A stretch of 56,715 nt of DNA, taken from the IMG/VR virus record IMGVR_UViG_2622736468_000005; one strand, given 5' to 3'. The first letter of the stretch is position 1. Every line of letters begins with the position of its first letter. A program made the position numbers and the translations under genes. Of the stretch, positions 1,296-50,346 are shown piece by piece. The notes under the pieces are model-generated. The model made no database searches, was not told the DNA's origin, and worked only from the letters and a program-made list of their open reading frames with translations. This DNA comes from a virus. Lineage: Duplodnaviria; Heunggongvirae; Uroviricota; Caudoviricetes.

Positions 1296-1964
1296 ATGGT
1301 GAAATTAATGAAAAAAAACACAGATGATGGGGCTAAAATTTACACACCACTTACCCTAAAGCTTTATGACTGGTGGGTTTTGGGAGTATCAAATCGGCTT
1401 GCATGGGGATGTCCTACAAAGGAACACCTTCTTCCACACTTTCTGGAACATTTAGGTAACAACCATCTGGATATTGGTGTTGGAACTGGGTTTTACCTTA
1501 CTCACGTACCTGAGAGTAGTCTGATATCTTTAATGGATTTGAACGAAGCTAGCCTGAACGCGGCATCTACAAGGGCTGGGGAATCAAAAATTAAACATAA
1601 AATTAGCCATGATGTTTTTGAACCTTATCCCGCGGCGTTACATGGTCAATTTGATTCCATTTCCATGTTTTACCTTCTTCACTGCCTGCCTGGAAATATA
1701 TCTACAAAAAGCTGTGTAATACGCAATGCGGCGCAGGCCTTAACTGACGATGGAACTCTATACGGAGCCACAATTCTTGGCGATGGAGTTGTGCACAATA
1801 GCTTCGGTCAAAAACTGATGCGCATTTACAATCAGAAAGGCATCTTTTCAAACACAAAAGATTCCGAAGAAGGCTTAACACATATACTCTCAGAGCATTT
1901 CGAGAATGTTAAAACCAAGGTTCAAGGTACTGTAGTAATGTTTTCCGCTTCAGGGAAAAAATAG
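1296..1964 (+). CDS. class I SAM-dependent methyltransferase (moron; substrate unknown)
   Basis: 222-aa ORF; glycine-rich motif I LDIGVGTGFY typical of Rossmann-fold SAM methyltransferases; gene is AT-rich relative to flanking tail genes and on the opposite strand. Confidence 0.6.
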   Translation: MVKLMKKNTDDGAKIYTPLTLKLYDWWVLGVSNRLAWGCPTKEHLLPHFLEHLGNNHLDIGVGTGFYLTHVPESSLISLMDLNEASLNAASTRAGESKIKHKISHDVFEPYPAALHGQFDSISMFYLLHCLPGNISTKSCVIRNAAQALTDDGTLYGATILGDGVVHNSFGQKLMRIYNQKGIFSNTKDSEEGLTHILSEHFENVKTKVQGTVVMFSASGKK

Positions 1965-1970
1965 CATCCA

Positions 1971-2187
1971 ACCGCAGCACGTTCTTGCTTAAGACGTGCT
2001 GCGGCATAATCCCAATGATTACTCCCTGACAGGGTTCGTAGGCCACTCAATATCAGGTGCAGTTGATGTATCAACACGGTTCAGCAACACCCGATACTTT
2101 TTCCAGGCTTCCAGCAATGAGGTTTCTTCCTCCGTTGCGATTTCCAGATCTACAGCATCCTGAAGTGGCGCAATATGCTCACTGGCT
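1971..2187. repeat. direct repeat copy 2 (3' end of intact tfa plus terminator hairpin)
   Basis: Matches 920..1135; perfect hairpin ccgcagcacg(ttcttgcttaaga)cgtgctgcgg immediately after tfa stop. Confidence 0.8.
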
Positions 2188-2603
2188 ACCTGCATCAGGC
2201 TGTTTTTTGTTTCTTCCGCCTCCCGGATCCGGAACAGTTTTTCTGCTTCCGTATCCTTCACCCAGGCTGTGCCGTTCCACTTCTGAAACTCCCCTTCCGG
2301 GGATAACCAGGTAACATTTTCCGGTAACGGACCGAGTTCAGAAATAAATAACGCGTCGCCGGAAGCCACGTCATAAACCGTTTTACCCCGATGATCTTCA
2401 ACGAGATGCCACGATGACTCATCACTGTTGAAAACGGCCACAAAGCCAGCCGGAATATCTGGCGGTGCAATATCGGTACTGTTTGCTGGCAGACCTGTAT
2501 GAGGCGGAATATATGCGTCACCTTCACCAATAAACTCATTGGTTCCAGCCAGTAGATTATAAATTTTTATGGTCCGTGATTGTTCACTCATTCTGAATAC
2601 CAT
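2019..2603 (-). CDS. tfa: tail fibre assembly protein (lambda Tfa-like chaperone)
   Basis: 194-aa ORF directly downstream of stf with overlapping start/stop (2603); position and size as in lambda stf-tfa. Confidence 0.8.
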
Positions 2604-5600
2604 TATGCAAGCCTCACAATATAGTTAAATGCGATGTTTTTGACGGTGTTTTCCGCGTTACCAGCAGCGTTAACGGTGATGGTGTGTCCATGTGAACCAA
2701 TCGCAACCGAGTGCGTATGCGCACCAATACCTACAGTATGTGCGTGTGCACCTGCGCTTGCAGCAGTACCCGATACAGAGTGCGTATGAGCGCCTGCAGA
2801 AGAAGTGTTAACACTGTATTTAGAATAATCAGGTGATCCACTTCCCGGAGCACCTTTGGTGCCACCTGAAACAAATGTTATCGAATGGGTATGTGCACCG
2901 GCTGAAGCAGCCGTACCGCTAACACTATGGGTATGCGCCCCGGTGTTATTCGTGGATTTAGTGCCGTAATCAAACGACGATGTGGTTTTCGTCCCCAAAT
3001 CCGTACTGGATGCGCTGGCGCTGTGGGTGTGCGATTTAATGCCGTCCTGTTCCTGAGACAATACGGCCCGACCACTGGCAGGTTTGCCCTTAATCGTCCA
3101 GCCACGCATATCAGGGATCACGCCTGACGGATAAGCGGCTGCAAGTTTCGGGTATGCAGATTTGTCAAAAGTCTGCCCCTGCATCAGGGCATAACCAGAC
3201 GGAACGGTATCTGATGGCCACGGGATTGGTGCGCCGACTGGGTAGCTTTCTGGTGGAAGATTTTTCGAGGTATAAACTTCTGCCCAGTCTTCCTCAAAAC
3301 CATAGCCATCTCTTGAGGAACGGTAGAACAGACCTCCATTTCTGTAATGCGCCTTCATCCGCAGGGTCCGGCAACTTCCGACTCCGGTATAGAAGTTAAC
3401 CAGAATATAGCTGTTGCCAGAGCGGGTGACATTGTAAGCGCCTGATTCGGCATTCCATGGAACGCCACCATCCGCATCGGCATATGTATCCGTTGCCCTT
3501 CTGGCAAAAGCAGCCACATGCGCGGCGGTTAAAGTAATATCTTTTGAACCATCAAACTCAACCCCAGAAACCCGTCTTGGCGTTTGCAGCTTTGTTGCTG
3601 TCAATGCGTTACCGTTCAGACTTGCAGACAGCTTGGTTCCAATAACCAGTTCGCCGGTTGCGTTATCAATAGCAAACGGTCTTAATGTATTCCATCCACC
3701 ATAAACATCACCTTGATTGGTAAGCAGCAGGTAAGTTTTAGCGCCATCATTACGCCATAATGCCCCATACTCCCCACCTATCATTCGAATCTGATTACCA
3801 CCACGCGCTACAATTTCGTCTGTGGCAAAAAGTTTTTTGCACGACAAGTTATCGTTAACGATTAACGAATGGGACTCATAAAAACCACGCCCACTCTTAA
3901 AATCAAGGATAACGTCCGCCGCGATACATTCAGTCGCCGGATTTGTTGCCCCAAACTTATAGGTCGTATCATTAACAACGAGATCAGCACCAGGTGCGGA
4001 TATTGACAGGCCATCTTCGATAAACGCAAAAACAGGGAAAGCAGCGCCATCAACATAGAACACAGAGCGCAAATCATCGCCCTTATTACTCATCATTATT
4101 GAGTGGATGGCTCGTTCATTGTTTTGATATTGCCAGAACATTCCATAAGCATAACGCCCCCTGTCAGTCCAGCCACCAGGCATAACAAATCCGTTAAACT
4201 CGCAGTTATTCATCGGATCGCCTGCGGTTCGCGTTGCCGTGGTGATAATGACCCTTGATGCCAGTTCGCTTACTGAGCCAGCAGAACGCATAACAACAAC
4301 AGGATAATATTTTCCAGATGTTGCACCTGCAGGAGCGTTAACCCGCACATAACGCATACCACGTTTATCAGCAAAGTCTGTTTTACTGACCGCGTTAATG
4401 TTGTTCAGGAAGCGTCCCTTATCGGGTATATCAGCGCCGTTCTGGTCTTTCTGCAGACGTTTCTCTGCATTGTCATAGGCTGCTTTTACTGCCTTTGGCG
4501 TTGCCGCCAGCGTTTCAGACGTGCTGTTGGTCGCGCTGCTGAGCTGTACTATCCCCTTTTTCGTCGTGCTCGCATCCTCAAGCGCCACGGCGGATGCAAT
4601 ATCCTCTGCCCGTTTTGCCGCTGTCTCGGCGCGCGTTGCCGCGGATTCCGCCGTACTTTTGCTCTGAGCTGCCGCCGTCGCACTGCCAGCTGCCTCTGTC
4701 GCCTTCGTGGATGCCGTCGTGGCGCTGCCCTTTGCTGCTGACGCCTGTCTGGTCGCCTCATCTTTTGAAGCAGACGCAGATGATGCCGATGACGCCGCCG
4801 AACTGGCGGACGATGCGGCAGCCGTTTTTGAGGATTCTGCGCTGGTTTCCGAGGCTTTCGCGTTCGTTTCGGATGTCTTCGCTGCCTCTTTTGAGGCCGC
4901 CGCATCCCGTGCTGAAGTGGCTGCTTCTGACGCTTTCGTGGTCGCGGTGGATGCAGAAGTGGCTGCTGATTGTTGTGACGCTGCCGCATTCGTTTCTGAC
5001 GTTTTCGCCGCACCGGCACTGGTAGCCGCCGCGCTTTTTGAGGACTCTGCAGCGGCAGCACTTTTTGATGTTTCAGTAGCCTTTGTTGATGCCGTTCCTG
5101 CGCTGGAAGACGCTGACTGAGCCGACATCGCGGCCTGCCCGGCTGATGTGCTGGCTGCACGTGCTGAGCCTGCAGCATCAGTCGCATGGGTTGCCGCCTC
5201 ACTGGCAGATATGCTGGCATCGCTGGCTGACTTCTTCGCGGCTGCCGTGTTCTGTGCCACCGCGGACGCGTTACGCGCCACCTCTTCCACCATCAGTTCA
5301 AAACGGCGCAGTGCCTCAGGACGGGCATCATCCTCCGTCATGGCACCGAGAAAATCATTCAGCGTACCTGGTCTGGAACCTTCATAGACGGTAATGGTCC
5401 CGGCATGTGAAGGCGGAAAACCTTCAACCAGCAGGGTGACGCTGTACTGACCATGCTCAACATCCATGCTGTAACGTCCGGCTTCATCCGGATTTTCAGA
5501 GGCCACCGTGTTCACCACCACCGTGCTGCTGGTTCGTCTGGCCTTCAGCACAATGGTGCAGTTCTGTACTGGTTTTCCTGTGCCATCTTTAAGCACGCCA

Positions 5601-34829: not shown

Positions 34830-34906
34830 TGGACCGCCATCGGGGACTTGAACCCCGCGCAGCCAGCTTCGAAGGCTGGCGCTCTATCCCGATGAGCTAA
34901 TGGCGG
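34830..34906 (-). tRNA. tRNA-Arg (anticodon read as TCG)
   Basis: 77-nt cloverleaf on minus strand: acceptor CCGCCAT/ATGGCGG, D-arm GCTCATCGGGATAGAGC, anticodon loop CTTCGAA, T-arm CGGGGTTCAAGTCCCCG, 3' TCCA. Confidence 0.7.
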
Positions 34907-34913
34907 TATGTGA

Positions 34914-34989
34914 TGGTGGCCCTTGCTGGATTTGAACCAGCGACCTGGCGATTATGAGTCGCTCGCTCTCACCACTGAGCTAAAGGGCC
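34914..34989 (-). tRNA. tRNA-Ile2 (anticodon CAT, ileX/ileZ-like) or tRNA-Met
   Basis: 76-nt minus-strand sequence GGCCCTTTAGCTCAGTGGTGAGAGCGAGCGACTCATAATCGCCAGGTCGCTGGTTCAAATCCAGCAAGGGCCACCA; 7-bp acceptor stem, CTCATAA loop. Confidence 0.8.
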
Positions 34990-38132: not shown

Positions 38133-38459
38133 ATGACTAAAAATACTCGTTTTTCCCCCGAAGTCCGTCAACGGGCAGTCCGTATGGTTCTGGAAAGTCA
38201 GAGCGAATATGACTCACAATGGGCGACAATTTGTTCCATTGCTCCAAAGATTGGCTGTACGCCGGAGACTCTGCGTGTCTGGGTTCGCCAGCATGAGCGG
38301 GATACCGGGGGCGGTGATGGAGGGCTCACCACCGCTGAACGTCAGCGTCTGAAAGAGCTGGAGCGTGAAAATCGTGAACTGCGCCGCAGTAACGATATCC
38401 TTCGCCAGGCTTCCGCTTATTTTGCGAAGGCGGAGTTCGACCGCCTCTGGAAAAAATGA
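38133..38459 (+). CDS. IS629 transposase OrfA (HTH)
   Basis: 108-aa [25 protein letters not shown]...; slippery A AAA AAT at its end. Confidence 0.85.
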
Positions 38460-39346
38460 TGCCACTGCTGGATAAGCTGCGTGAGCAGTACGGGGTCGGA
38501 CCGCTATGCAGCGAACTGCATATTGCCCCGTCAACGTATTACCACTGTCAGCAACAGCGACATCATCCGGATAAACGCAGTGCCCGTGCGCAGCGCGATG
38601 ACTGGCTGAAGAAAGAGATACAGCGCGTATACGATGAAAATCACAAGGTATACGGTGTGCGTAAAGTCTGGCGTCAGTTGTTACGGGAAGGTATCAGAGT
38701 GGCCAGATGCACTGTGGCACGTCTCATGGCGGTTATGGGACTTGCCGGTGTTCTCCGGGGTAAAAAGGTCCGTACGACCATCAGCCGGAAAGCCGTTGCC
38801 GCAGGCGACCGCGTAAACCGTCAGTTCGTGGCAGAACGACCTGACCAGCTGTGGGTGGCTGATTTTACTTACGTCAGCACATGGCAGGGCTTCGTCTATG
38901 TGGCGTTCATCATTGATGTGTTTGCCGGATACATCGTGGGGTGGCGGGTCTCATCGTCCATGGAAACGACATTCGTGCTGGATGCACTGGAGCAGGCGTT
39001 ATGGGCCCGTCGACCGTCCGGCACGGTCCATCACAGTGATAAAGGTTCTCAGTATGTATCGCTGGCCTACACACAGCGGCTTAAGGAAGCCGGATTACTG
39101 GCATCAACAGGAAGTACAGGCGACTCGTATGACAACGCGATGGCGGAGAGCATCAATGGTCTTTACAAAGCGGAGGTAATACACCGTAAGAGCTGGAAAA
39201 ACCGTGCAGAAGTGGAACTGGCCACACTCACGTGGGTGGACTGGTATAACAATCGACGATTGCTGGAAAGGCTGGGCCATACTCCTCCGGCAGAAGCAGA
39301 AAAAGCTTATTATGCTTCCATCGGAAACGATGATCTGGCAGCCTGA
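38456..39346 (+). CDS. IS629 transposase OrfB (DDE integrase domain)
   Basis: 296-aa ORF overlapping orfA in -1 frame; DDE-type catalytic core. Confidence 0.85.
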
Positions 39347-40229
39347 GTTCACAGATAAAACACTCTCCAGGAAACCCGGGGCGGTTCACTTACCACAACA
39401 CGCACACGGCTGTGTCTTCACCCAGCGTGTGTATTTCTCGTTAACCCAGCGGCGACGTTTAGGTCGTTTCATGAAAGATTCCGGAGACTCAGGATCAACG
39501 GCAATGCTGACCACCGTCTCTTCCTGTGGCGGGTTTTGCTGGTGGGCGTGAGGCAGCGGCGCAAGATTTTTTGTGCGCTGCTTCAGTATGCTGGTGGCGG
39601 TCTGCTCTCCCGGTACGATGTCGCTTTCACGGTACATTGAGCGGATTTTTTCCGCACGCAACCCCAGCGAACGACGTAATACCGCTTCCGGTAGCGCGTC
39701 CGCCACCTGATTGCGGACCGCCCACCAGGATAATTCAGCCAGCGATAATTCCCGTTCCTGCGAGCCATTCATTGCATGGCGTATGACGTCAATCATCCAT
39801 GCAGACAGGTTTTGGTGAGCAAGTTGCCCGAGTGATTCGGAGGTCTGGTCGCGCAGCTGGTTGTCGCAGTGCCAGCACAACACCATTGCGCCGGTACCAT
39901 AACGGTGAATGACGGTTTCACTGTGGTGATAATCGCCGTGTGGCCACTGGCAGGATTTAACATGGCGCAGTAACCAATCAGACAATGCGCCAGCGCCACC
40001 AGCAGCACGAATCACTCGTTCGTCGCTGAAAAATGGCAGTAATGATTTATCCTCCGCCAGCGGCTGGCGAACGGCAGGAACGACCCCGGACGGCAGATTA
40101 CGCATGCTTTTCGGTTCCGGCTCCACCAGTACCCGGGTATTGTGGAATACCGGCATGGATTCACGGCCCGGCTTAACGATCACCAGCCCGAGTTCCGGTA
40201 CCAGAACAGGTCGAAGTAATACCCGCACG

Positions 40230-40514
40230 TTACCTCCAGATGCGTTGCTGGAATGTGCGGGACGGACGCGGTGGGCGTTCGGAATAAGGGAGTCTGACGT
40301 AGATTATCCAGTGACGATAATCGAGGGTGAGGGCTTTCCTAAACTCATATCCACGTCTGCGGTAGTTATGAATCAGCCATTCGGCCTGTTCTTCAGTACA
40401 GGGATCGTGCTGATACCAGTCATATTTGAATGCGTGAGAACGCCACCCGTGCCTGCTGGCAAAGGCAGAATCAGAATTGCGAAATTTGAAATTATGCGCC
40501 ATTGTCATCTCCAA
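40230..40514 (-). CDS. hypothetical protein
   Basis: 94-aa track ORF; probable start at internal MAHNFKF; unknown family. Confidence 0.3.
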   Translation of the reverse strand: MEMTMAHNFKFRNSDSAFASRHGWRSHAFKYDWYQHDPCTEEQAEWLIHNYRRRGYEFRKALTLDYRHWIIYVRLPYSERPPRPSRTFQQRIWR

Positions 40515-40558
40515 TGGCGCTGCAGGTTGCCAGTTGTTCAGGCTGGCTCACGTATTAT

Positions 40559-40735
40559 AACTTATTCCCGAACTACCTTGAAACCGAGTCTTTCCAAGTA
40601 TTCAATGAATGCCTCAACAGATAACACTACATGATCATCAGGAATTAACGCTGTGTAGGTAATACCCCCATTCTCAACGCGCACAGCATAGAGGCCATCT
40701 TCACTAAAAATTTCACGTAATTCTTCGATTTTCAT
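40559..40735 (-). CDS. hypothetical small protein (58 aa)
   Basis: Minus-strand ORF MKIEELREIFSEDGLYAVRVENGGITYTALIPDDHVVLSVEAFIEYLERLGFKVVRE, below track length cutoff. Confidence 0.3.
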
Positions 40736-40865
40736 CAACAGAATCCTTCCAGATAAATAGCACTCCCCTGTTCGGGGTCCATCCCTCTTCTCCCTGCGCG
40801 CTACTTAAGTATTTTTGATTCTATTCTGGCACCGTCCAAAACTTCAAACACGTTGAAAATAAAAA

Positions 40866-40886
40866 CAAAAAACCCGCCGAAGCGGG
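40866..40886 (-). terminator. intrinsic terminator after HTH-peptidase gene (cccgc-ttcg-gcggg + T-run)
   Basis: Minus-strand acccgcttcggcgggttttttgtttttatttt immediately after stop at 40892. Confidence 0.6.
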
Positions 40887-40891
40887 TATAC

Positions 40892-41998
40892 TCAAACAAT
40901 CTGGAAAATATTTCTTGGATTTGTAATAGGTCTGTTGATGGAGAACAACTCACGAATTAAATCTTGGCTCAAGCCAGTTTTCATAAGAATTCTTAGCCAG
41001 GTTGCATCATCCAGCATTTCAATCGCCTCGGCCAGCATGCCGGGTTCTTCAGGGCGCAAAAGTTCATCACCAGGTTCAACTCTCGTATACCCTCTGGAAT
41101 TAAGATGCATATAGCCAGTTCTTGCCTGTTCCTGGGTCAATAAGCCTAATGCGCTGGCTCGATAAATACACATTTTAAGGCTGATTTTCCATCTAAGTTT
41201 AAATTCAACCAGAGCATTCCAGTCGAATTGCTTACCTCGTATTCGTGGAAATTCTTTAATGAAAGATAACCTGGGAACTAATAAGGCGCTCGAAAAGTGA
41301 TCGGCTTGTGATTCCGTAAGTTTATCACCTGTCGTTATGCCCTCATGCATTACTAAATGCCCTAATTCATGACCTAAATCAGAGCGAAATCTACATATGC
41401 TTTTTTTAACATTGTTCCTGATGATAACAGGCCTGTTATTGTGAACAGTAAAAGCATCAACACGATCATCGACTCCCGTAACATGCGCAACGATTACCCC
41501 TAAACTCTCCGCCAATTTAACCATTGATGATATAGGGCCAAGACCTAAATTCCAGGCACGGCGACAATCTTCTGCCACTCGCTCAATATCATTCGGAGTA
41601 AGTAATTCAGCCCCTGGGTGCTCCGGTATGTTAACGTCAGGAAATTCGATTTCACCTTCAACAGCAGAAATTATAATATTAAGAATCTCAGCCCTGGCCA
41701 ATACACTATTAGTCAGCGTTTGAGTCCTGGACTTCTTACTCCGAAAATGGCAGACATCACTTTCCAGAGCGTATTTTCGTTCAGTAAAAAGAAAACTGGA
41801 CTTAATCATAAGCGCTGAAGATATTAACTCAAGACATTGCTCCGATGGCCTGCACCCCTTCTCCAGTTTGCTAACGAATTGCTTTGTCTTGCCAATTTTT
41901 TCGGCTAACTCTTCACAAGAAAGCCCAACAGCCATTCTCGCTAGTTTGAGCTTATCACCCCGATACTCAGTGAAGTTATTCACCTGATGTTCCATCAC
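40892..41998 (-). CDS. HTH-XRE DNA-binding domain fused to ImmA/IrrE-family zinc metallopeptidase (M78, HEXXH)
   Basis: 368-aa ORF; N-terminal HTH (LKLARMAVGLSCEELAEKIGKTKQFVSKLEKG), central HEXXH (SDLGHELGHLVMHEG); AT-rich gene. Confidence 0.7.
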   Translation of the reverse strand: MMEHQVNNFTEYRGDKLKLARMAVGLSCEELAEKIGKTKQFVSKLEKGCRPSEQCLELISSALMIKSSFLFTERKYALESDVCHFRSKKSRTQTLTNSVLARAEILNIIISAVEGEIEFPDVNIPEHPGAELLTPNDIERVAEDCRRAWNLGLGPISSMVKLAESLGVIVAHVTGVDDRVDAFTVHNNRPVIIRNNVKKSICRFRSDLGHELGHLVMHEGITTGDKLTESQADHFSSALLVPRLSFIKEFPRIRGKQFDWNALVEFKLRWKISLKMCIYRASALGLLTQEQARTGYMHLNSRGYTRVEPGDELLRPEEPGMLAEAIEMLDDATWLRILMKTGLSQDLIRELFSINRPITNPRNIFQIV

Positions 41999-42626
41999 TG
42001 CTCACATCCAAATCTTTATCCTTCGTACGCCGACGAAGAGGCACCTTATTAATCTCCGCTTCGTCAGGGAGTGTGTTATAATCAAGAGGCATAAGCGGCA
42101 TCGATGCTGTAGATTGATGAGAAACTATACTAATCTGAGCACCATAAGTATTAAATCCAACAAGAGCTACCTCCCAACGAGGCAGTGTGGACTCTAATTC
42201 ACCATCGCCCTCTTCGGATAAAAAAGGCTCAGCTATGACTCGCCATGTAATATCTTGCTCAGCCTCAACATCACCAAACAATGAGAGCTGCTCATACTCT
42301 ACTTTATTTCGACGCAGACGATGTTTCTTTTTGGGGTTATTAATGCAATCTTTGGTAAATTGTAGCGGAACTTTATTTAAAGCAACTACATAGTCCAACC
42401 CCTTGGAAATCATCTCAAGGCCAGGAATTGCATCTTCATTTTGAATAAGATGATTTCTGACCCAATCATAAGCCCTTACACCTTCAGACCAGTTGCTGTC
42501 TAATGCGTGCTTATGATAGTACAGCTGCTCAAGTACGTTAGCGATCTCCGCCAACAAGTGGCGAACATAGTTTTCAGCAAGATAAGGTTGAAATTCCCAA
42601 CAAGGAGCTAACTGATTTTCATTCAT
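41976..42626 (-). CDS. hypothetical protein, upstream partner of HTH-ImmA/IrrE gene (unknown family)
   Basis: 216-aa ORF overlapping the next gene by 23 bp (operon); promoter-like TTGACA...TATGTG upstream; AT-rich. Confidence 0.5.
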   Translation of the reverse strand: MNENQLAPCWEFQPYLAENYVRHLLAEIANVLEQLYYHKHALDSNWSEGVRAYDWVRNHLIQNEDAIPGLEMISKGLDYVVALNKVPLQFTKDCINNPKKKHRLRRNKVEYEQLSLFGDVEAEQDITWRVIAEPFLSEEGDGELESTLPRWEVALVGFNTYGAQISIVSHQSTASMPLMPLDYNTLPDEAEINKVPLRRRTKDKDLDVSSDGTSGE

Positions 42627-42701
42627 TTCAAGTTTCGCTTTTTTTAGAATTCGTAAACCACATATTTTCGCATTTTTCTATTTTTGTCAACCAGACTAAT
42701 G

Positions 42702-42722
42702 CAAAAACCCGCCGAAGCGGGT
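42702..42722 (-). terminator. intrinsic terminator after hokD; same hairpin sequence as 40866..40886
   Basis: Minus-strand aacccgcttcggcgggttttt; identical stem-loop to the downstream copy. Confidence 0.55.
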
Positions 42723-42791
42723 TAAGTGCGGGTGCGTTGAGGATGCCTGGCACATCAGAGGTGGCGGGAGATTACTCCCCCGCCGGGTCTC

Positions 42792-42947
42792 TTACTCCTC
42801 AGGTTCGTAAGCTGTGAAGACAGCGACCTCCGTCTGGCCGGTTCGGATTCGTACCTCGCAGAGGTCTTTCCTCGTTACCAGTGCCGTCACAATGACGGTT
42901 AAACAGATGACGATCAGGGCGATTAGCATCGCCTTTTGCTGCTTCAT
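42792..42947 (-). CDS. hokD: Hok/Gef-family small membrane toxin (HokD/RelF-like)
   Basis: 51-aa ORF MKQQKAMLIALIVICLTVIVTALVTRKDLCEVRIRTGQTEVAVFTAYEPEE with AAGGAG RBS; track ORF 42792..43004 carries an in-frame N-terminal extension. Confidence 0.8.
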   Translation of the reverse strand: MKQQKAMLIALIVICLTVIVTALVTRKDLCEVRIRTGQTEVAVFTAYEPEE

Positions 42948-43238
42948 AGCCTGCTTCTCCTTGCCTTTCGGCACGTAAGAGGCTAACCTACGTGTGTAGA
43001 GCATAGATATGGCCTCAGATTAATGTTAAGCGTCTTGCCGGACGCGTAATGTTAACTGGGGCTTTTCTCTATCTGCCTTTTGGTGTTCATGCCTGAGACA
43101 GATAGCCTCAAGCACCCGCTGCAATTCTACTTAACTCTCCTTTTCCCGCAAACCGTTTTTATCCCCAGCGGCAAATCGAATACACCACCAGCGCCACCGC
43201 CATCGCAATTCCTACCGTTGTTAATGCTTCAGGCCAGG

Positions 43239-43583
43239 TCATCGTAAAATATCCTCCACGCTTATCAGTCCGTTCCGCTCCAGATAACTCATCGCCTTAT
43301 CCGGTAATTTGCAGTCTGGCTTCGCTTTCCTCAGTTGCCAGGTTAACTGCTTTACCAGCATGGTTAACTCATCGACCAGACGCTGATATCCCACTGGTTT
43401 GTATTCATGCAATTTACCGGCTGGCTCTGCTGCCAGCGATACCAGTGCGATTTCCAGAACAGCAATATCCATCTTATATGTGCGGATGATGTCATGGTCG
43501 ATTGTGCCCGGTATGCACAGTCTCTGTGCTTCAATAGTCTCCTCTGCGTGAGCTATTAACTGCTCTCTGGTAAAAGTCGTCAT
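43239..43583 (-). CDS. hypothetical protein (nin-region)
   Basis: 114-aa ORF; N-terminus MTTFTREQ... is paralogous to next small ORF. Confidence 0.4.
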
Positions 43584-49093: not shown

Positions 49094-49519
49094 TCAATGC
49101 ACAGCCACAATATTTCCTGCAGGGCCACCACGATTCATCTGGTTGAAACCAGCGATCGCCACTGCGACAAAATCATCAGCGTCTCTCACCAGTCGTTCCC
49201 GCGTCTCCACCAGCTCCCGAAAATAAGCTGAACTGTGGCTGCGCATTCGGGCCACCAGCAGAGGCGGCATTGCTTTTTCGATCGCTGGTAACAACGCCTG
49301 AATTTTTTTAACCGCATCAGGAGTGTCTTTCTCCACCCAGCGGAAAATTTTCTGGGTATTGCGAGCCAGGGCTTCCGGATGGCTGTCGTCATATAATTCC
49401 GGGAACGTCATACCAAGCTCAAAATAAGCCCGGGTTATTTCAGCTGCCGGAACTTTTTCACCGTCCGGATGCGCCCAGGCATTCATCGCCATGCGGATGT
49501 GCTCATGCCTGATTTTCAT
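49094..49519 (-). CDS. YdaT-like / phage CII-like regulatory protein
   Basis: 141-aa ORF MKIRHEHIRMAMNAWAHPDGEKVP... immediately downstream of cro-like gene. Confidence 0.55.
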   Translation of the reverse strand: MKIRHEHIRMAMNAWAHPDGEKVPAAEITRAYFELGMTFPELYDDSHPEALARNTQKIFRWVEKDTPDAVKKIQALLPAIEKAMPPLLVARMRSHSSAYFRELVETRERLVRDADDFVAVAIAGFNQMNRGGPAGNIVAVH

Positions 49520-49884: not shown

Positions 49885-50346
49885 ATGAAAAAAACACGCG
49901 AAGTGATTGCAACTCCAGAAGCGAGCAAGAATTTAAAAGCCGCATGGAATGCAAGAAAAAAAGAGCTGAAGCTGACTCAAGAGCTGGCGGCTGAGTTGTT
50001 GGGATTCGAATCTCAAGGCACCGTTAGCCAGTATCTGAACGGCAAGATACCGGTAAATACCGACGCTGCGCTAAAATTTGCGGCTCTGTTAAAGGTAAAA
50101 CCAGAGGACATTCGAGAAGACCTTAAAGACTTAATGAATTATGTAAGATCATCAGATACTTATGATGATAACTTTTCAGGCAAAGGATGGAGGCTGGTCA
50201 ATGAAGAACAGGCAGAGTTACTTAACCTCTTCGAGATTCTACCTGCGTCAGAAAAAGCCAAACTCCTTAACCAGCTACGTGGACTAAACAAGCTCTACGA
50301 GGAAGCCTTCGAGAACATGCTGGCACTAAAGAAACGTAACCAGTAG
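49885..50346 (+). CDS. prophage repressor, DicA/RacR-like HTH protein (no S24 peptidase domain)
   Basis: 153-aa ORF; HTH (LTQELAAELLGFESQGTVSQYLNGK); C-terminus resembles DicA; divergent from cro-like gene. Confidence 0.6.
   Translation: MKKTREVIATPEASKNLKAAWNARKKELKLTQELAAELLGFESQGTVSQYLNGKIPVNTDAALKFAALLKVKPEDIREDLKDLMNYVRSSDTYDDNFSGKGWRLVNEEQAELLNLFEILPASEKAKLLNQLRGLNKLYEEAFENMLALKKRNQ

Follow-up and report, generated by a model that had tools for sequence, protein, structure and literature searches.

Rosmer systems have been defined as pairs of a Zn-peptidase antitoxin and a toxin whose function is unknown, and a ∆rmrA mutant of such a system was unobtainable (Millman et al. 2022, preprint). 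The verified system comes from Escherichia coli OLC-716, and its sequences are given in the supplement of the preprint. A phage-derived Rosmer pair, that of the Gordonia phage Kita, was also found to defend E. coli, and the ImmA-type antitoxin hub was reported to be promiscuous, with the toxin gene coming first in 58% of the pairs (Ernits 2023). In the Vmi480/Vmi470 pair of Vibrio mimicus MGIVmi1, a 198-amino acid (aa) toxin encoded first is followed by a 362-aa antidote consisting of a helix-turn-helix (HTH) and a Zn-peptidase, the pair has its own promoter, and the lethality of Vmi480 in E. coli is relieved by co-expressed Vmi470 (Luo et al. 2015, PMC4671572). We have analysed a two-gene cassette, rmrT–rmrA, in a 56,715-nt stretch of Caudoviricetes DNA (IMG/VR record IMGVR_UViG_2622736468_000005; the whole stretch is referred to as the window). 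Judged by its sequence, the cassette is a RosmerTA phage-defence toxin–antitoxin (TA) pair, which is a type already catalogued, and it is an ordinary representative of its kind. It is likely that the cassette constitutes a RosmerTA moron with its own promoter and terminator, located directly 3′ of hokD in the nin region of a lambdoid prophage resembling Rac/Qin, and that it functions both as a TA pair and in anti-phage abortive infection.

The cassette shares with the OLC-716 system the two-gene operon, the position of the toxin gene in front and the antitoxin of about 370 aa in which an XRE-type HTH is joined to an M78 peptidase. The toxins, in contrast, belong to different sequence families, and they have nothing in common except a motif of the QLxLF type that falls at an aligned position. 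The likeness to Vmi480/Vmi470 is one of description: the toxin family of the window includes Vibrio proteins of about 199 aa, and the corresponding PADLOC model has 198 positions, in parallel to the size of Vmi480. That pair resides on a genomic island, whereas the window cassette lies in a lambdoid prophage. The features of the cassette are the following:

41976..42626, minus strand: rmrT, the gene of the predicted toxin/effector, 216 aa (PADLOC RmrT model PDLC03929; WP_001004956.1)
40892..41998, minus strand: rmrA, the gene of the predicted antitoxin/regulator, 368 aa (Pfam; PADLOC RmrA model PDLC03943; PHROG 2439)
42276..42290, minus strand: codons of QLSLF, RmrT residues 113–117 (read from the sequence)
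41357..41371, minus strand: codons of HELGH, RmrA residues 210–214 (read from the sequence)
42703..42723, minus strand: upstream hairpin, which is the hokD intrinsic terminator and delimits the cassette on its upstream side (direct repeat and terminator scan)
40862..40887, minus strand: downstream hairpin and T-run, the cassette's own terminator (direct repeat and terminator scan)
42653..42693, minus strand: cassette promoter region (comparative positions in related loci)

The two open reading frames (ORFs) of 216 aa and 368 aa named in the preliminary description, which had been made from the sequence without database searches, are both present and overlap. The 23-nt overlap claimed there applies to the GTG start of rmrA, which gives 368 aa; with the start chosen in RefSeq (ATG at 41995; 367 aa, WP_000401168.1), it shortens to 20 nt. 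RefSeq labels the rmrT product (WP_001004956.1) a hypothetical protein and the rmrA product (WP_000401168.1) a helix-turn-helix domain-containing protein. The hokD gene lies directly upstream in the direction of transcription. The cassette was also described as AT-rich, and it is indeed the 1.8 kb with the lowest GC content of the window (41.5% compared with 51.6% for the whole window): none of the 1815-nt segments sampled at steps of 50 nt across the 56.7 kb was equally AT-rich (mean 51.8%, standard deviation 4.8).

The assignment to RosmerTA follows from full-length matches of both proteins to the PADLOC models. RmrA matched all 14 RmrA models, the best being PDLC03943 (E 6.2e-105, positions 2–342 of 370), and RmrT matched PDLC03929 (E 4.6e-25, positions 5–195 of the 198 in the model). 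Weaker matches of RmrA to CapP (1.6e-14) and CapH were also found. In PHROGs, RmrA falls into phrog_2439 ('transcriptional regulator') and RmrT into phrog_5786 (unknown function). The preliminary description had suggested a protease-controlled TA or abortive-infection switch with the upstream gene encoding the effector, and proposed searching with profile and defence-system models; that both proteins are recognized as RosmerTA components lends support to this suggestion. The window RmrA is related to that of OLC-716 (29% identity over residues 12–309, E 2e-35), whereas a comparison by hhalign of the profile of the window toxin family with the verified 239-aa OLC-716 RmrT gave no relationship (probability 0.2). 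Such a combination of related antitoxins with unrelated toxins fits the promiscuity reported for the ImmA-type antitoxin hub.

The predicted fusion of an XRE HTH and an M78 metallopeptidase in RmrA was borne out by Pfam, which placed HTH_3 at residues 17–63 (41810..41950) and Peptidase_M78 at residues 177–282 (41153..41470), followed by a C-terminal extension. The HEXXH motif, whose absence would have refuted the preliminary reading, is intact on alignment. In 27 relatives of RmrA with identities down to 32%, H210, E211 and H214 of the zinc site as well as H218 and E229 do not vary, which makes E229 a candidate third zinc ligand. The NCBIfam spr1629 model (NF052239) aligned with RmrA over the full length (E 1.5e-45), and the score of 155.9 bits lies far below the equivalog cut-off of 335 bits, so that RmrA is related to this family but is not an equivalog. 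The same HEXXH peptidase of the M78 family (COG2856) is coupled to an XRE HTH in ImmA/ImmR of ICEBs1, IrrE/DdrO of Deinococcus and CapP/CapH of CBASS (cyclic oligonucleotide-based anti-phage signalling systems). In these cases, however, protease and repressor are separate proteins regulating other genes, whereas in RmrA the HTH and the peptidase are fused, an additional C-terminal region is present and a dedicated toxin is the partner. A further invariant element in the 27 relatives, including that of phage Tritos, is the tripeptide H84-F85-R86 (41741..41749, minus strand) in the segment that links the HTH to the peptidase; it could be a site of regulation or self-cleavage.

No family was found for RmrT in Pfam or NCBIfam, in line with the initial remark that the 216-aa protein belongs to no recognized family, although the PADLOC RmrT model does match it. 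Pfam scans of all 56 members of the aligned RmrT family returned noise only. A sequence-profile search of the PDB, a Foldseek search of the RmrT model against BFVD and tblastn of RmrT against sequenced phages gave no match. The exhaustive HMMER search nevertheless delimited a family of 69 representative clusters, all of about 200 aa, with named sources in Vibrio, Pseudomonas, Pseudovibrio and Enterobacterales. Toxin relatives from Vibrio (28% identity) and from a metagenome (21%) are each followed by an HTH_3 and Peptidase_M78 gene of about 370 aa. Among 53 prophage loci from IMG/VR, which were collected with the closer toxin alignment and not with the diverse one, all 52 complete loci have an overlapping gene with HELGH after the toxin gene. 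In the sequences compared, rmrT and rmrA thus keep together and in this order, mostly with an overlap, until the identity of the toxins has fallen to about 20%. The AlphaFold2 model of RmrT reached a predicted local distance difference test score (pLDDT) of 86 (64 for the first model) and consists of two long helices, a β-meander, short helices, a further three strands and a charged tail that is disordered. The Rosmer toxin of the Gordonia phage Kita depolarises membranes (Ernits 2023), whereas no transmembrane segment was found in the window RmrT.

The cassette is present in 237 of 5426 complete E. coli genomes, with at least 99% identity in 224 records, and its carriers include E. coli ABU 83972. 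A pair of genes annotated as hypothetical and helix-turn-helix proteins can thus be given the name of a defence/TA system found in about 4% of the complete genomes of the species. Strain KL53 has a copy with 80% identity in a different nin context that lacks hokD. Two large non-mobilizable E. coli plasmids also carry the cassette, with a toxin 99.5% identical to that of the window (NZ_AP026904.1, 200346..200993; CP088590.1, 98426..99073); these may be phage-plasmids or carriers of prophage fragments. In FDAARGOS_1249, the insertion sequence (IS) IS5 is inserted within the cassette.

The cassette was initially credited with its own TTGACA/TATGTG promoter. The −35 hexamer TTGACA (42685..42690) is supported by comparison of related loci, and the −10 element is better placed at AAATAT (42662..42667), after a 17-nt spacer on the minus strand. 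A generic scan for consensus promoters did not call it. Two direct-repeat boxes 33 nt apart accompany the promoter: TGGTTGAC at 42686..42693 overlaps the −35 element and TGGTTTAC at 42653..42660 lies just past the −10 element. In nearly all of the 53 prophage loci, a box xGGTTGAC is found at −67 and xGGTTTAC at −34 from the ATG of the toxin gene. Both boxes recur in phage Tritos and in a Vibrio relative, and GTTGAC is invariant in an alignment of ten diverged cassettes including these two. From this conservation we infer that TGGTTGAC and TGGTTTAC are candidate operators for the HTH of RmrA. A second repeated element, GCGAAA, is found twice on the minus strand (at about 42637..42642 and about 42670..42675).

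The hairpins reported to flank the cassette proved to share an exact 20-nt direct repeat, AAAAACCCGCCGAAGCGGGT (40868–40887 and 42703–42722), and both copies score as intrinsic terminators on the minus strand; by our estimate, about 2e-6 exact 20-mer repeats would be expected by chance in 2.2 kb. The proposal of a moron inserted at a terminator was examined with prophages lacking the cassette. These carry a single hairpin at the site, in the order rem, hairpin and hokD in Qin of K-12 and hairpin and hokD in JJ1887. When the cassette and one repeat are removed from the window, the remaining sequence is colinear across the junction with Qin (94.3% over 459 columns, 2 gap columns) as well as with JJ1887. 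The insertion as proposed is therefore supported by the empty sites, and it needs refinement in one respect, namely that the downstream hairpin is the cassette's own. This hairpin begins 5 nt past the rmrA stop codon. In 44 of the prophage loci, a hairpin of the form CCCGC-loop-GCGGG, with seven different loops, follows the stop codon of rmrA at a distance of up to about 20 nt (73 nt in one locus, whose rmrA is truncated), and loci with no hok gene upstream are among them; in relatives from other genomic contexts the distance is 8–22 nt. Its occurrence in these contexts indicates that the downstream terminator belongs to the cassette and is hok-like, and that it did not arise by simple target duplication. 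A 20-nt target-site duplication made by a transposase was considered and dropped, since neither a transposase nor inverted repeats were found and relatives of the cassette have a hairpin of their own at other locations.

The same site, between hokD and a small ORF upstream of ydfU, is occupied by other cargo in related genomes. Phage Tritos carries there a different Rosmer subtype, with the same promoter layout, between two hairpin copies; its RmrA matches PDLC03947 best and is 32% identical to that of the window, and its toxin is unrelated to RmrT. In E. coli 2015C-3905, separate HTH (119 aa) and ImmA/IrrE (147 aa) proteins are encoded between the two copies. In the extracted loci these cargoes span 1880..3775 (Tritos) and 1880..3260 (2015C-3905), each bracketed by CCCGCCGAAGCGGG hairpins. 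The loop of the left hairpin varies (GAAG in the window, GTAG in CFSAN004176 and GAGG in Tritos). The exchange of cassettes that end in a hok-like terminator most likely proceeds by recombination at the hairpin or near it. The hokD terminator thus offers a small and well-delimited example of cargo swapping in lambdoid prophages, and the site could be mined for more defence genes. An ORF6N-domain gene was observed at the same site in another strain. The toxin of Tritos itself had no relatives in tblastn searches of plasmids and phages, and comparison by hhalign with the RmrT family profile was negative.

By analogy with other Rosmer pairs, RmrT would be toxic and RmrA would neutralise it, and RmrA would probably also use its HTH to repress the operon, with the boxes TGGTTGAC and TGGTTTAC as possible binding sites. 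Host ClpX/ClpP would be needed to hold the toxin harmless, and infection or loss of control would release free toxin and abort the infection. In carriers of Rosmer systems, clpP (E. coli E101) and clpX (pneumococcus and Pectobacteriaceae) were reported to become essential, and ClpX/ClpP may likewise be conditionally essential in carriers of the window cassette.

A clue to the target of the toxin is provided by residues 113–117 of RmrT, QLSLF, which match exactly the consensus QL(S/D)LF of bacterial β-clamp-binding motifs (PMC9690074). In the alignment of 56 family members, Q113 (80%) and L116 (75%) rank 12th and 15th among the 216 columns in conservation, and QLSLF, QMTLF or QLTLF is retained in all 53 prophage loci. 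The family variants, among them QMSLL, QLSLPL, QLTLF and QLCLF, resemble the clamp motifs found in MutS, Hda and the translesion polymerases of E. coli. In the AlphaFold2 model, the motif spans the end of the helix formed by residues 108–115 and the following loop; the 10-residue block containing it has a pLDDT of 70, among the lowest before the C-terminal tail, and indels occur just after it in relatives. The OLC-716 toxin family was represented by nine sequences, the verified toxin and eight plasmid-borne relatives (24–39% identical), each of the latter followed by an XRE/ImmA gene. At one aligned position these sequences have QLKLDL, QLDLF, QLSLF, QMYLF, QLELDL, QIDLF or QLFLPG. Two toxin families with no detectable relationship to each other therefore share the motif. 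The type of system is known, and the conserved motif of the clamp-binding type in two Rosmer toxin families is a new lead.

Two described toxins bear on this motif. The RipA/RipB pair of Streptococcus pneumoniae (Spr1630/Spr1629), assigned to the Rosmer family by its authors, has an XRE and ImmA-like antitoxin; RipA toxicity is suppressed by mutations in the hydrophobic pocket of DnaN, and the antitoxin requires ClpX (PMC12795458). The pocket on which RipA acts is the site that binds QL(S/D)LF motifs, and RipA can be likened to RmrT by description, although the role described for RipAB is in competence induction and not in defence. No family member named as a Streptococcus protein was found in a profile search of 5.8 billion proteins, so that RipA probably lies outside the RmrT family of the window. 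The second toxin, SocB of the type VI TA system SocA/SocB of Caulobacter crescentus, binds the clamp via a clamp-binding motif (PMC9690074); it blocks replication at the clamp cleft, and ClpXP is essential owing to the toxin, a dependence similar to the link between Rosmer and Clp. This likeness is hypothetical, since SocAB has no relation to the cassette in sequence or architecture and SocA, instead of being an HTH-peptidase, is a small adaptor of ClpXP.

The conservation of QLSLF together with the parallels to RipA/DnaN and SocB leads us to favour clamp poisoning as the mechanism of killing. RmrT might act by filling the cleft of the β sliding clamp (DnaN) with its QLSLF motif; we prefer this mechanism tentatively, regarding it as quite possible and still short of probable. 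Occupation of the cleft by RmrT would stall replication of the host and of phages that rely on the host replisome. The motif could then link the pneumococcal RipA result to enterobacterial defence systems. A broader proposal, which we put forward with slightly greater reserve, is that at least two unrelated Rosmer toxin families are β-clamp poisons acting via QLxLF/QLxLxL motifs, which would amount to abortive infection by replication arrest of the SocAB kind and would explain the essentiality of ClpX/ClpP, and that the hokD terminator is the joint at which Rosmer subtypes are exchanged.

Several observations weigh against this picture and have to be considered together with the alternatives. 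The QLSLF segment is internal, is partly in a predicted helix and is preceded by the near-invariant E110, so that structural or catalytic reasons could account for its conservation. No canonical clamp motif is present in the Tritos toxin. Moreover, Rosmer toxins are heterogeneous, as the membrane depolarisation by the Kita toxin illustrates, so that a mechanism cannot simply be transferred from one family to another. RmrT might instead be an enzyme, for instance a divergent nuclease of the restriction-endonuclease fold that cuts nucleic acid, with the QLSLF segment playing a structural role. We regard this as rather unlikely, and among the alternatives it holds up best.

Damaged copies of the antitoxin gene are a further difficulty. 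In CFSAN004176, rmrA (2505..3607 in the extracted locus) is annotated as frameshifted beside an intact rmrT, and one IMG/VR locus has an rmrA truncated to 346 aa. Such copies argue against strict addiction, unless they are sequencing errors or come from suppressor strains. With the same reservation, the IS5 insertion in the cassette of FDAARGOS_1249 is also unexpected of an addictive pair. It is unlikely, a little more so than an enzymatic RmrT, that the module serves only in addiction and stabilisation of the prophage or as a stress-response TA pair, with no role in defence. The surroundings would suit such a role, as the cassette adjoins hokD, which encodes a type I toxin of the post-segregational-killing type, and K-12 Qin carries relBE in the same neighbourhood. 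Two relatives would suit it too, Vmi480/Vmi470 having been characterised solely as a TA pair on a genomic island (PMC4671572) and RipAB operating in pneumococcal competence and not in defence (PMC12795458). However, two Rosmer pairs protect E. coli from phages (Millman 2022; Ernits 2023), the swapping of different Rosmer subtypes and of other cargo at this hot spot is what would be expected of defence cargo, and addiction and defence can coexist.

The assignment of toxin and antitoxin to the two genes is challenged by PD-lambda-2, an E. coli defence operon in which an Xre-peptidase fusion is likewise encoded downstream of a toxin-like gene (Vassallo et al. 2022). There the fusion alone is toxic when overexpressed and is rescued by the upstream HigB-like protein, so that the roles in the window cassette could be reversed as well. 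That the HTH-peptidase is the toxic effector and the 216-aa protein its inhibitor or sensor, or that the roles are more complex, is nevertheless improbable: PD-lambda-2 differs in its three-gene architecture and its HigB-like partner, in Millman's Rosmer, Vmi480/Vmi470, E101 and RipAB the toxin is the partner whose function is unknown and the antidote is the peptidase protein, and both window proteins match the RmrT and RmrA models. An ImmR/ImmA-type switch governing prophage induction in place of a toxin system, suggested by the homology of the M78 domain to ImmA and IrrE, which cleave XRE repressors, is very improbable, because a separate Rac-like immunity region 7 kb away (HTH repressor ORF 49885..50346; YdaT-like ORF 49094..49519) excludes that the cassette is the main lysogeny switch, otherwise colinear prophages lack the cassette, and the 368-aa fusion protein is paired with a conserved partner that is not an HTH protein and is encoded in the nin region instead of beside the integrase gene.

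The surroundings of the cassette show some further peculiarities. Just 3′ of its terminator, a 58-aa ORF (40562..40738, minus strand) resembles Rem of K-12 over the first 26 residues (77%) and then diverges; RefSeq annotates a pseudogene fragment there. Beyond it, an IS3-family element (region 38214..40228; orfB transposase of 296 aa, 38456..39346, plus strand) interrupts a DUF968/ydfU-like gene, of which a 280-aa N-terminal ORF remains (39386..40228, minus strand). The gene is intact in CFSAN061761, which is 100% identical across positions 40200–43300 of the window. Two adjacent tRNA genes (34830..34989, minus strand) adjoin a DNA-methyltransferase gene near the Q antiterminator; ARAGORN assigned them to Arg (anticodon TCG) and Met (anticodon CAT), and the matching genes of CFSAN061761 are called tRNA-Arg and tRNA-Ile in RefSeq.

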